From an uncultured Chloroflexia bacterium (GTDB lineage: Bacteria > Chloroflexota > Limnocylindria > Limnocylindrales > CSP1-4), in the NCBI GenBank assembly GCA_963734535.1, contig CAVTHS010000002.1, positions 64,001 through 128,000 of the forward strand: a stretch of 64,000 nt of DNA. Direction: 5' to 3'. Position 1 is the stretch's first letter. Each line of letters opens with the position of its first letter. The notes beneath the pieces are model-generated. The model saw only the letters and a program-made list of their open reading frames with translations, did not search any database and was not told the DNA's origin. This document shows positions 46,680 to 49,699 of this stretch, in pieces. A program made the position numbers and the translations under genes.

Positions 46680-47920
46680 ATGAACAGCAAGCGTCCCGTT
46701 CCGACGGCCGTGGCCCCGCGTCTCGAGGCGATCCGCCCTCTTGGCACGAAGGGGCGGATCGCGATCGTTATCCCCGTCGTGGTGGGCGCCATCATTGCCG
46801 CACCGAGCGGGTTCGGCCTCTACTTCTTCATCCCGTACGCCGGCGTCGGGACGCTCCTCGTGATCCGGCGACCCCGCACGTCGATCGGATGGATCCTGCT
46901 CGCCCTCGCCTGGGCCTTCGCGCTCGTAACACTGTCGGTCGACGCAACGGCAGGACAGTTTGTCGACGGGAGCCTTGGCCCTGTGGAATGCCACCGTCGC
47001 GGTCGTCTCCGCCGCGGCTGGCGGCGCTGCATTCTTCCTGTTCGCCCTGCTCTCGATCGTCTTCCCGTCGGGACGGCTTCCGGGTGGCCGTTGGGGGGTG
47101 GCCGCTCGGCTCGGGCTCGGCGTGGGGCTCTCTCTTCGTCGCCGCCGGCGCGCTCATGCCAATGATCACGATGAGCCTCTGGGGATCGACTTCGAGCATG
47201 ACGGTTCCGAATCCGGCAGCGGTCCTGCCCGACCTGCCGATCTGGAGCGTCGTCACACCAGGCACGGCCATCCTGCCGATCGCGGTGCTGATGGTCGCTG
47301 CCGCTGTCTCGCTCGTGGTCCGCTACCGGCGGGTGGCGGGCATCGAGCGCCAGCAGTTTCGGTGGCTCACGGCGGCACTGTCATTCGTCGTGGCGGCCGT
47401 CGTGGGCGGCTTCATCGTGGGCACCCTGATCCCGGCCGCGGGCGAGAGCGGCGTGGTGTGGCTCGGTGCCGTCGTGGCATTCCCCTGCGTCCCCATCGCC
47501 ATCGGGATCGCCGTCCTGCGGTACCGGCTGTACGAGATCGATCGGATCATCAGCCGCGCGATCGGGTACCTCATCGTGACAAGCGTGCTGGTCGCCGCGT
47601 TCGCCATGCTGGTCCTCGGACTGACATCCGTGCTCGAGCCGCTCACCGGGGGCAACACCCTCGCGGTCGCCGGCTCCACGCTCGTCGTGGCAGCCCTCTT
47701 TCAGCCGCTCCGGGCGCGGGTCCAGCGCGCGGTCGACCGGCGCTTCGACCGCTCCCGGTACGACGGGGAACGGCTGCTCGCCGCCCTCGGGGAACGCCTG
47801 CGCGACGAGGTGGACCTGGCGGCCATCCGGGGCGAGGTCCTGGCCACGGTGGATGCCGCCGTTCGGCCGTCGGGATCCGGGCTATGGCTGCGTCGTCCGG
47901 ATGCTGGGGGCGGGGCGTGA
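46680..47920 (+). CDS. Multi-TM membrane sensor-like protein ending in an N-terminal GAF fragment (frameshifts ~46985, ~47135)
   Basis: RRPRTSIGWIL, FPSGRLP, ERQQFRW, AVLRYRLYEID, FQPLRARVQRAVDRRFDRSRYD, RLRDEVDL...VRPSGSGLWLRR, then a stop. Confidence 0.75.
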
Positions 47921-47943
47921 CGAATTGCGCAAATCCCTGTGCT

Positions 47944-47982
47944 CGTAACGGTTTACGAACGCTCGAGGGGTAGAACCAGGCC
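47944..47982 (+). promoter_or_regulatory. Box A (copy 3), leaderless promoter
   Basis: CGTAACG-GTTT-ACGAACG-N9-TAGAAC-N6-ATG(47983). Confidence 0.7.
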
Positions 47983-49699
47983 ATGACATTCATCGACTCG
48001 ATCAGGCGGACGGTCGGACGCGGCCCGCGGGGGGTCAGCGACGAAACGCCGCAGGCCGGCGCAACCACGGCAGCAGGAGGGACCGCGGTGGTTGCGTCGG
48101 AGACCTCGAGCGCCGCTTTCGACGCGCAGGCAGCCGCACCCGCAAACGGGACGGAGACTGGTCCCGCCATCGAGATCGCGCCGTCCGACCCACTGTTCGC
48201 CTACCTCCAGTCGGCGAGCGGGGTCGTCGACGCAGAGCGCCTGGACCTCGAGTCGACCGCGCTCGCGCAGTTGCGGGGCGCCGGCGTGCGGGTCATCGTC
48301 CCGCTGGTCACCCAGGGCGAGCTGATCGGCGCGCTCTACCTGGGCCCCCGCCTCTCGGACCAGGACTACAGCACCGACGACCACAAGCTCCTTTCGACGC
48401 TCGCCGCCCAGGCGGCGCCCGCGATCCGGGTGGCCCAGCTTGTCCGCGAGCAGGCGTCGAGATCCAGGCCCGGGAGCGCCTGGAGCAGGAGATGCGGGTC
48501 GCCACCCTGATCCAGCAGCAGTTCCTGCCACACGAGCTGCCCCAGCTGCCCGACTGGCAGGTCGCTGCGTACTACGGCCCCGCGCGCGCGGTCGGCGGCG
48601 ACTTCTACGACTTCATCGCGCTGCCCGACGGCCGGATCGGGATCGTCGTCGGCGACGTCACCGACAAGGGAGTCCCGGCGGCCCTGATCATGGCCCGCAC
48701 CCAGTCCGTCCTCCGCGGAGAGGCGCCCAGACTGATCTCGCCGGCGAAGGTCCTGGAGCGGGCGAACGAGATCCTCCTGCCGGAGATGCCGGCCCGGATG
48801 TTCGTCACCTGCCTGTACATGATCCTTGACCCGACCACGGGTGAGGTGGTGTACGCAAACGCGGGCCACAACCTGCCGTATGTCCGCACCGCGGACGGCG
48901 TGGTCGAGCTCCGGGCGACCGGGATGCCACTCGGCCTCCTGCCCGGGATGGACTACCCGGAGCACGAGGCGGTCCTCGCGCCCGGCGAGAGCGTGCTCCT
49001 CTACAGCGACGGGCTCGTCGAGGCGCACGACCGCGCCGGCGACATGTTCGGGTTCCCGCGGCTCCGCGAGCTCATGGCGACCGATCTCCCCGGCAGCGAC
49101 CTCCTGGACCACCTCCTCGACGAGCTCCACGGCTTCGTGGGGAAGGGCTGGGACCAGGAGGACGACATCACGCTGGTCGCCCTCCAGCGGACCGGCGGCG
49201 GCGCCACGGCGCTTACCGCGGAGACCGAGGCCGAGGAGCCGGAGCGGATCGCGTCCTGCTGCGCGACTCGCTCCCGGGCGAGCCGGGCAACGAGCGCCTG
49301 GCGATGGACCGGGTCGCCGAGTCCGTCGCCCAGCTCGCGATCGAGCCCGCCCGGCTGGAGCGCCTCAAGACCGCCGTCAGCGAGGCCGCGATGAACGCGA
49401 TCGAATACGGCAGCCAGAACGACCCGACGATTCCGATCGAGATCGAGGCGGTCGTGACGGGCCACGACCTGGTCGTCCGGATCACCGACCGGGGTCTGGG
49501 CGGCCCGCTGGGCGACGCGGAGGAGCCGGATCTCGAGAAGAAGCTGGCCGGCGACCAGAAGCCGCGCGGCTGGGGTCTCTTCCTGATCAAGCACATGGTG
49601 GACGCCATGGAGGTCACGCCACACGGCACTGGCCAGACCGTGACCCTCACCCTCCACCTGGAAGGAGCCAGCGATGCCGGCGATCCCGTTCACGGCTGA
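47983..49699 (+). CDS. Partial GAF + SpoIIE/RsbU PP2C phosphatase + RsbW-like HATPase fusion (frameshifts ~48458, ~49246)
   Basis: VPLVTQGELIGALYLG...LAAQAAPAIR; VGGDFYD, GDVTDKG, NAGH, YSDGLVE, EDDITL; then SEAAMNAIEYG, ITDRG, RGWGLFLI. Confidence 0.8.

Follow-up and report, generated by a model that had tools for sequence, protein, structure and literature searches.

We describe here a putative split receptor in which one GAF domain is divided between two neighbouring genes of an uncultured Chloroflexia bacterium (assembly GCA_963734535.1). The locus lies in a 64,000-nucleotide (nt) stretch of contig CAVTHS010000002.1, hereafter the window; all coordinates are positions in this window, and the locus was read at 46680-50401 on the plus strand. 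The upstream gene encodes a multi-pass membrane protein, the candidate sensor, whose cytoplasmic tail corresponds to the beginning of a GAF domain. The downstream gene encodes a leader, the rest of that domain, a SpoIIE-type PP2C phosphatase and an RsbW-like kinase. The split between the genes is real and conserved, and recurs in Chloroflexota and Actinomycetota; the two parts are homologous to one GAF fold, and they co-occur among genomes. With a probability of about 60%, we interpret the pair as a natural split sensor phosphatase, in which the membrane tail would complete the GAF domain of the phosphatase in trans and signal to its PP2C domain.

The gene order on the plus strand is the membrane gene, a 62-nt spacer, the gene for leader, partial GAF, PP2C and kinase, and two STAS genes, in a region of 70-72% G+C. 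By three-frame translation the sensor gene (46680..47920, +) encodes about 413 residues when read through, and its product ends with ...LLAALGERLRDEVDLAAIRGEVLATVDAAVRPSGSGLWLRRPDAGGGA, followed by TGA at 47918-47920. The tail (47699..47917, +), which aligns to residues 329-401 of the homologue P0133, comprises a helix with RRFDRSRYD, a second helix and the strand GLWLRR. The first-pass annotation, made by a model from the sequence alone, had placed the end of this open reading frame (ORF) just after two helices and the first strand of a GAF domain, in agreement with both the stop codon and the P0133 alignment. Its 62-nt gap between the genes was also confirmed (47921..47982, +); the spacer carries stops in all three frames, and its counterpart in the related genome G005 measures 63 nt. 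The phosphatase-kinase gene as a whole covers 47983-49699 (+). It opens with ATG at 47983 and encodes a conserved N-terminal peptide, MTFIDSIRRTVGRG (47983..48024, +), which is kept across the homologues inspected, and then a low-complexity leader differing in length and sequence among homologues (48025..48159, +). After these about 60 low-complexity residues the remainder of the GAF domain appears as IAPSDPLFAYLQ...VIVPLVTQGELIGALYLG...STLAAQAAPAIRVAQLV (48160..48450, +), with two short helices, a beta hairpin and the start of a long C-terminal helix.

Comparison with the Pfam GAF families (PF01590, PF13185 and PF13492) indicated partial matches for the N-terminus of the phosphatase: GAF_3 at 30.9 bits (cutoff 27; profile 36-127 of 129), GAF at 27.3 bits (cutoff 22.4; profile 76-133 of 133) and GAF_2 at 30.5 bits (cutoff 28.6). 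No complete GAF domain was found in a single polypeptide of this locus; only the C-terminal part of the profile was matched in the phosphatase ORF, and the membrane protein alone gave no GAF match in Pfam. The membrane protein reached the cutoff of no Pfam or NCBIfam family (DUF2975, 20.6 bits against a cutoff of 27). In a protein atlas its nearest clusters are labelled 'hypothetical protein', and HisKA_7TM at a score of 0.83 serves as a lead only.

The relation between the two parts was seen in one-piece forms among longer proteins, namely P0133 (908 residues, from an Acidimicrobiales metagenome-assembled genome, MAG), P0134, P0140 (Thermoanaerobaculia MAG) and a read-through form, P0131. Fused homologues had been proposed as a check by the first-pass annotation, and were found as P0133, P0134, P0140 and the locus L048. 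In fused homologues the tail and the GAF remainder are linked by a loop of 4-8 residues. When fused, membrane-only and phosphatase-only proteins were aligned together, the conserved core of the membrane-only proteins ended at about residue 395 of P0133 (SLWLHPL), and the conserved part of the phosphatase-only proteins started at about residue 399. On this alignment the GAF remainder continues directly where the sensor tail ends, and no piece of the domain is lost or present twice.

The AlphaFold2 model of P0133 (mean predicted local distance difference test, pLDDT, 89.8) places the split point, residues 395-399, inside a GAF fold. Before it the model has helices at 346-364 and 368-383 and a strand at 388-392; after it come helices at 409-417 and 431-438, strands at 443-449 and 452-459, and a long helix, 470-520, leading into PP2C. 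In a fold search, solved GAF domains aligned to model residues 346-510 with Z scores of 12.5-14.9. The best of these was 3jab_B (Z 14.9, root-mean-square deviation (rmsd) 3.2, 150 residues aligned), and further matches were 1mc0_A (Z 13.9, rmsd 3.8, 161 aligned), 3trc_A (Z 12.5, rmsd 3.6, 146 aligned) and 3k2n_B (Z 12.5, rmsd 3.4, 151 aligned). The query was the whole 908-residue model, so that PP2C structures dominate the result and the GAF rows rank 37-50; the PP2C part itself matches the PP2C domain of SiaA (6k4e_B) with Z 26.7. The Pfam GAF profile also runs across the junction, at residues 551-680 of P0140 (profile 3-133, 37.1 bits) and at residues 368-487 of P0133 (profile 2-133, 21.7 bits, just below the cutoff of 22.4). 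These models and alignments, made on homologues rather than on the two chains of the window, indicate that tail and remainder together form one GAF fold, and bear out the proposal that the tail is its start and the phosphatase N-terminus its remainder. Since the GAF alignment of P0133 begins at residue 346, the tail is predicted to supply about the first third of the fold. Among 141 family members P243 of the tail is invariant and W249 and R251 are nearly so, and identity in the GAF remainder ranges from 79 to 100% across the 120 homologues listed. Judging from these alignments, both halves remain under constraint.

We also analysed the AlphaFold2 model of the phosphatase orthologue from G005 (pLDDT 83.9). 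Residues 1-59 fall below 50, and they are followed by helices at 72-79 and 94-101, strands at 106-112 and 115-122 and a helix at 133-183, all at pLDDT 85-97. No helix or strand in this model replaces the missing N-terminal GAF elements, and the phosphatase alone is thus predicted to hold an incomplete GAF domain. One conceivable filler is the N-terminal peptide of the phosphatase, MTFIESIRRTVGRG, which might occupy the gap in cis, so that the membrane tail would either compete with it as a switch or play no part. This peptide (consensus MTFI(D/E)SIRRTVGRG, 14 residues) is kept across homologues, is tethered by a variable flexible linker, with 19-88 residues before the DPL motif, and is present even in the read-through fused form P0131. 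In the G005 model, however, the peptide is predicted to be disordered (pLDDT below 50), with residues 1-59 left unstructured at pLDDT 26-44 along the leader and the peptide not docked on the GAF part, and fourteen residues are too few to replace two helices and a strand. We consider filling in cis improbable, and trans completion by the membrane tail remains our preferred interpretation.

As assembled, both genes of the window are interrupted. The sensor gene switches frame at single-base breaks near 46985-46989 and 47131-47132, and the phosphatase gene switches frame near 48455 and 49241. The first-pass annotation had overlooked these four breaks, and had argued that the split is no indel artefact on the ground that the spacer holds a box-A promoter with a leaderless ATG. 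That argument was dropped, because the relatives belong to the Bacteria and a scan of 46400-50500 for the sigma-70 consensus detected 0 promoter-like sites; no terminator was found in the spacer either. The conclusion itself stood on another ground, the conservation of the split in intact relatives. For a check of the reading frames, contigs of the public runs X1, X2 and X4 (90-99% alike) were compared with the window over 46600-49760. One base fewer was found at the first break of the sensor gene, at 46985 (X1), 46986 (X4) or 46989 (X2), and one base fewer at 47131-47132 in X1 and X2. An additional A follows 48455 in X1 and X2, and two bases fewer are present at 49241 in X1. The assembly is MAG-like (14 contigs, completeness 89.9, contamination 7.1), and errors of its consensus are the most likely source of the four frame breaks.

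These breaks bear on the possibility that the split is an assembly artefact, or that the locus is a decaying pseudogene. Four frame breaks in two genes, a fifth near 50770 and the MAG-like nature of the genome would fit such an explanation. Against it, the split is kept by the intact orthologues of G005 and by 16 further loci from many taxa, the contigs of X1, X2 and X4 correct the four breaks, and those of X1 and X2 span the spacer. As far as the split itself is concerned, the artefact explanation is largely refuted, and for the whole of it we see hardly any probability left. The fifth break, seen next to an unbroken 3-kb SARP ORF and an unbroken 3.3-kb BTAD-nSTAND1 ORF on the flanks, nevertheless leaves some probability of true gene decay in this strain. 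Frame breaks were also observed in a related genome, G002, where the locus L007 (G002:C3:117645-121187) contains several, one of them inside the tail and mimicking a fusion; this assembly appears to be error-prone as well. The apparent fusion in G002, with both matches in one 698-residue open frame, was rejected, as the tail leaves the frame midway and the locus contains more breaks.

The two genes might in principle still yield a fused protein through stop-codon read-through or through frameshifting of the ribosome in the spacer. Only one stop separates the two ORFs, which are in frame with each other, in G005 (L013) and in the loci L027, L036, L041 and L046, and P0131 is a called protein that lacks a stop between tail and leader. 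The in-frame share, 5 of the 16 adjacent loci, is nevertheless at chance level, and the phosphatase has its own conserved start peptide. The spacer of the window contains stops in all three frames; in the X1 and X2 contigs it is one base longer than in the window, and with the extra X1 base it reads, by our own inspection of the sequence, TGA plus an in-frame TAG. Recoding of this kind is very improbable, and two separate polypeptides are the preferred products.

In G005 the arrangement is free of breaks. An intact membrane gene of 408 residues ending with ...LWLRGPDAGGGA is followed by a 63-nt spacer resembling that of the window and by an intact phosphatase-kinase gene of 573 residues, with PP2C and kinase in one frame. 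The sensor gene is multiplied in this genome: six tandem tail-bearing paralogues lie between the SARP gene and the single phosphatase gene, a seventh tail-bearing copy lies beyond the SARP gene, and nine matches were detected genome-wide. Two further genomes, G011 and G016, share the gene order of G005 and carry three tail-bearing sensor genes each, and one strong GAF remainder was found in each of the three genomes. With one to seven paralogous sensors carrying the same tail around a single phosphatase gene in related genomes, several sensor inputs probably share one output enzyme in these relatives. Interchangeable sensors serving one shared phosphatase had been suggested in the first-pass annotation; the suggestion fits the relatives, as in the case of the six tandem genes and single phosphatase gene of G005, and does not fit the genome of the window, in which the proposed count of tail paralogues detected no further tail or sensor copy beside the single one.

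This single sensor is a chimera when compared with the G005 array (L013, 7911-16090), combining its first and last copies. Its membrane part shares 74-91% identity with the SARP-proximal copy of G005, whereas the tail is 80-82% identical to the phosphatase-proximal copy and 47-67% identical to the SARP-proximal one. Independent contigs span the junction. This composition suggests that recombination in the conserved stretch preceding the tail led to array collapse or, alternatively, expanded the array of G005.

Beyond these genomes, the stand-alone membrane-plus-tail family comprises 22829 representatives at E <=0.001 and 3901 at E <=1e-30. Among the top 150, 137 are 340-460 residues long and 128 carry the RRF motif, with 126 of these 128 ending 50-79 residues after it. 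On the phosphatase side, all 120 listed homologues (330-598 residues) are unfused, and the close ones carry names from MAGs of Chloroflexota and Limnocylindrales. We classified 40 loci of named genomes, of which 31 have a close GAF remainder and 9 a remote one. A tail-bearing membrane gene stands directly upstream in 16 of the 31 close loci, and the fused form was observed in 2 of the 31 close and 4 of the 9 remote loci. These loci come from, among others, MAGs of Chloroflexota and Actinomycetota and the cultured Ktedonobacter racemifer DSM 44963 (L039) and Blastococcus saxobsidens DSM 44509 (L044).

Co-occurrence of the two parts was examined at two levels. Among 41 related genomes, both parts are present in the same 7, neither is present in 33, and a marginal match to the membrane protein only was found in 1. 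In a survey of 301 Chloroflexota genomes of at least 85% completeness, membrane-family matches were detected in 92 (the only tally to which the unpublished G201, G220 and G295 contribute) and the GAF remainder in 22. The tail is also present in all 22, as stand-alone membrane-plus-tail genes in 17 (best E <=1e-30) and in the same open frame just upstream of the remainder, that is fused, in 5.

Direct binding was addressed by complex prediction, using residues 1-156 of the window phosphatase and the 73-residue tail, with an alignment supplied for each. The verdict was 'weak support', with values of 0.58, 0.56 and 0.55 for the interface score ipSAE; at least 83% of contacts agreed between runs, and the pLDDT of the partner was at least 62. 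In calibration 58 of 80 solved complexes reached the mark, as did 2 of 110 mismatched pairs, and at scores of <=0.60 the passing set consisted of 7 of the 80 solved complexes and both mismatches. In this multimer check, of the kind that the first-pass annotation had proposed, ipSAE was thus 0.56 for the pair against 0.00 for the best of three controls. The prediction is consistent with physical reassembly of the GAF domain in trans.

Several observations weigh against trans completion. The partial GAF domain of the phosphatase is modelled with confidence (pLDDT 85-97) when the tail is absent, and may therefore be stable by itself. The tail genes are not adjacent, though within 7 kb, in 8 of the 31 close loci, and in 5 of the 31 none is found within the locus. 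In G194, assembled as a single contig (C1), the six listed sensor copies (seven matches) lie at least 0.5 Mb from the only phosphatase gene at about 206.6 kb, so adjacency is not universal. Two of the 19 Chloroflexota genomes with strong stand-alone membrane-plus-tail genes, G241 and G335 (91-92% complete), show no GAF remainder even at E 0.05, and the tail may therefore have another partner or role there. The same membrane-plus-tail module also occurs in HisKA_3 histidine kinases. The window itself holds a single sensor copy, and both of its genes are frame-broken as assembled. The co-occurrence counts overstate independence, because they concern linked genes in related genomes. Finally, complex prediction, the sole direct test of binding, was passed weakly, and the tool returned no contacts.

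Part of this evidence would also fit a split that is merely historical, in which the tail is an element for dimerisation or stability of the sensors themselves, the partial GAF domain with its linker forms a self-sufficient dimerisation module, and the two proteins no longer touch. The confident model of the partial domain, the very large size of the stand-alone sensor family, the dispersed sensor copies of genomes such as G194, the sensors of G241 and G335, and the weak complex prediction all lean in this direction. Other findings speak against it. Every one of the 22 genomes with a GAF remainder has the tail, separate or fused, and tail genes lie within 7 kb in 24 of the 31 loci, directly upstream in 16 of them. 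The strand residues of the tail are nearly invariant in stand-alone proteins, and the complex-prediction controls gave 0.00 against 0.56 for the pair. The window gene, moreover, retains the phosphatase-proximal type of tail (80-82%) although its membrane part matches the other copy. Taken together, we regard a purely historical split as unlikely, albeit an alternative to be taken seriously, and prefer completion of the GAF domain in trans.

The preferred interpretation can be set out as follows. The ancestor would have been a one-piece protein consisting of a membrane sensor, a GAF domain, a coiled-coil linker, a PP2C phosphatase and an RsbW-like kinase. The cut in this protein would have fallen within the GAF domain, at the loop that follows the first beta strand, leaving the first two GAF helices and the first strand on the membrane protein as a cytoplasmic tail and the rest on the soluble enzyme. 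The tail would dock into the incomplete GAF domain by fold complementation, in a manner like donor-strand complementation. Docking would tether the phosphatase to the membrane sensor, and the state of the sensor could then reach PP2C through the linker helix of about 50 residues. The PP2C and the fused kinase would together determine whether the STAS proteins of the two downstream genes are phosphorylated, giving a partner-switching output. Control through such a linker helix is described, in PMC12143880, for PPM phosphatases under the control of GAF, PAS or RsbT.

The domain assignments of the window proteins are compatible with this scheme. The linker helix and the SpoIIE-type PP2C domain (48450..49262, +) match the SpoIIE profile over its full length (E 2.5e-54, profile 1-191 of 192), and the translation contains GDVTDKG, YSDG and EDDIT, which may be the catalytic motifs with the metal-binding aspartates. 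The kinase domain (49259..49699, +) matches HATPase_c_2 at 86.9 bits (cutoff 27.4; E 1.5e-24); the NCBIfam equivalog models spIIAB and RsbW match it only below their cutoffs, and the assignment as RsbW/SpoIIAB-like is made at family level. The first STAS protein, of the anti-sigma-factor antagonist type (49674..50048, +), matches Pfam STAS at E 2.8e-11 and NCBIfam ant_ant_sig at E 2.3e-12, the latter below cutoff. The second (50042..50401, +) matches STAS at E 7.1e-12 and STAS_2 at E 1e-11; the STAS scores of the two are 43.5 and 45.5 bits (cutoff 22.6). A serine visible in ...NSTG... and ...NSGG... of the two proteins may correspond to the residue phosphorylated in SpoIIAA. The genes overlap at both joints, by 26 nt between the end of the phosphatase gene and the first STAS gene (49674-49699) and by 7 nt between the two STAS genes (50042-50048), which suggests one operon with coupled translation.

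Bacterial sensors are usually described as strings of whole domains, and their partners are thought to bind finished domains. The nearest known relatives are the one-piece membrane-GAF-SpoIIE-HATPase_c_2 proteins; examples are P0133, annotated as 'ATP-binding SpoIIE family protein phosphatase', and the protein of locus L048 (Caldilinea aerophila MAG). Their membrane domain, RRFxRxxYD tail, GAF remainder, PP2C and kinase correspond to those found here, in unchanged order, and can be aligned along their whole length. Where the one-piece proteins have a short loop, however, the present locus has a stop codon and a spacer, and then a fresh start codon and a leader of about 60 residues; in relatives the membrane half is multiplied. 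The HisKA_3 kinases P0135 and P0143 have this membrane domain and RRF...tail too, with a small GAF-like region behind it; they differ in having a histidine kinase output, and all those examined are in one piece. In Mycobacterium tuberculosis Rv1364c (PDB 3ke6), a PAS-RsbU-RsbW-RsbV protein, PP2C and an RsbW-like kinase likewise share one chain (P0133 model against 3ke6_B: Z 25.2, rmsd 8.0, 326 aligned). Unlike the present system, Rv1364c is unsplit, with a complete PAS sensor and its STAS domain in the same chain, and it lacks a membrane partner. Completion of an incomplete fold by a strand or segment from elsewhere is known from donor-strand complementation in chaperone-usher pili and from split PH domains; these analogies differ in being structural or scaffold assemblies.

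A functional likeness is offered by RsbU/RsbT and RsbP/RsbQ of Bacillus subtilis, where a PP2C phosphatase with a long N-terminal linker helix has a separately encoded controller and, within a partner-switching module, STAS targets. According to PMC12143880, from which the domain list of Rv1364c was also taken in part, RsbT for RsbU and RsbQ for RsbP are separate partners that activate the PPM phosphatase through its N-terminal domain and coiled-coil linker. Those partners bind a complete N-terminal domain, whereas the membrane partner in the present case would supply missing elements of the domain. Already known, then, are membrane-GAF-PP2C proteins in one piece, fusions of PP2C with RsbW, and PPM phosphatases activated by a partner. 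Full-text literature searches, whose coverage leaves most subscription journals outside, found no published case of a GAF domain split between two genes or proteins, nor of one whose sensor half is multiplied.

A signalling domain divided between two genes, with both pieces kept by evolution across two phyla, may have wider consequences. We advance, tentatively and at somewhat less than even odds, a broader extension to plug-and-socket receptors. Many sensors bearing the same GAF 'plug' would compete or alternate for one 'socket' on the phosphatase, with up to six sensors per tandem array and at least eight matches in some genomes, and completion of the domain would integrate their inputs. Such receptors would be widespread in soil Chloroflexota and Actinomycetota, and their arrays would grow and shrink by recombination. 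If the pieces reassemble, the system would represent natural fold complementation used for signalling, a simple wiring of many membrane inputs to one enzyme, and a ready natural split-domain pair for protein engineering. It would also give a likely role to the very large unnamed membrane protein family described above (22829 cluster representatives at E <=0.001). The cultured and harmless holders Ktedonobacter racemifer and Blastococcus saxobsidens make the split-GAF idea directly testable.

With respect to the surroundings of the locus, the gene divergent to the sensor gene (43582..46536, -) encodes a SARP/AfsR-like regulator with Pfam matches to BTAD (E 2.9e-19), AAA_16 (E 2.3e-20) and TPR_12 (E 2.5e-17), and this neighbour is syntenic in G005 and G002 (loci L013 and L007). 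Among the 10 ORFs submitted from 36-57 kb, no sigma factor or other defined target was found, the rest of the genome not having been searched; other neighbours in that interval are SARP-like regulators, an FAD oxidoreductase, tRNA synthetases and unknowns. Downstream of the STAS genes a conserved gene that has no Pfam match lies at 50444-51203. It contains the fifth frame shift, near 50760-50790, and its G005 orthologue is a single unbroken frame. Farther downstream, 53974-57276 forms one ORF of 1100 residues that combines Trans_reg_C, BTAD, nSTAND1 (E 1.5e-111) and a Bmp/PnrA-like substrate-binding domain.

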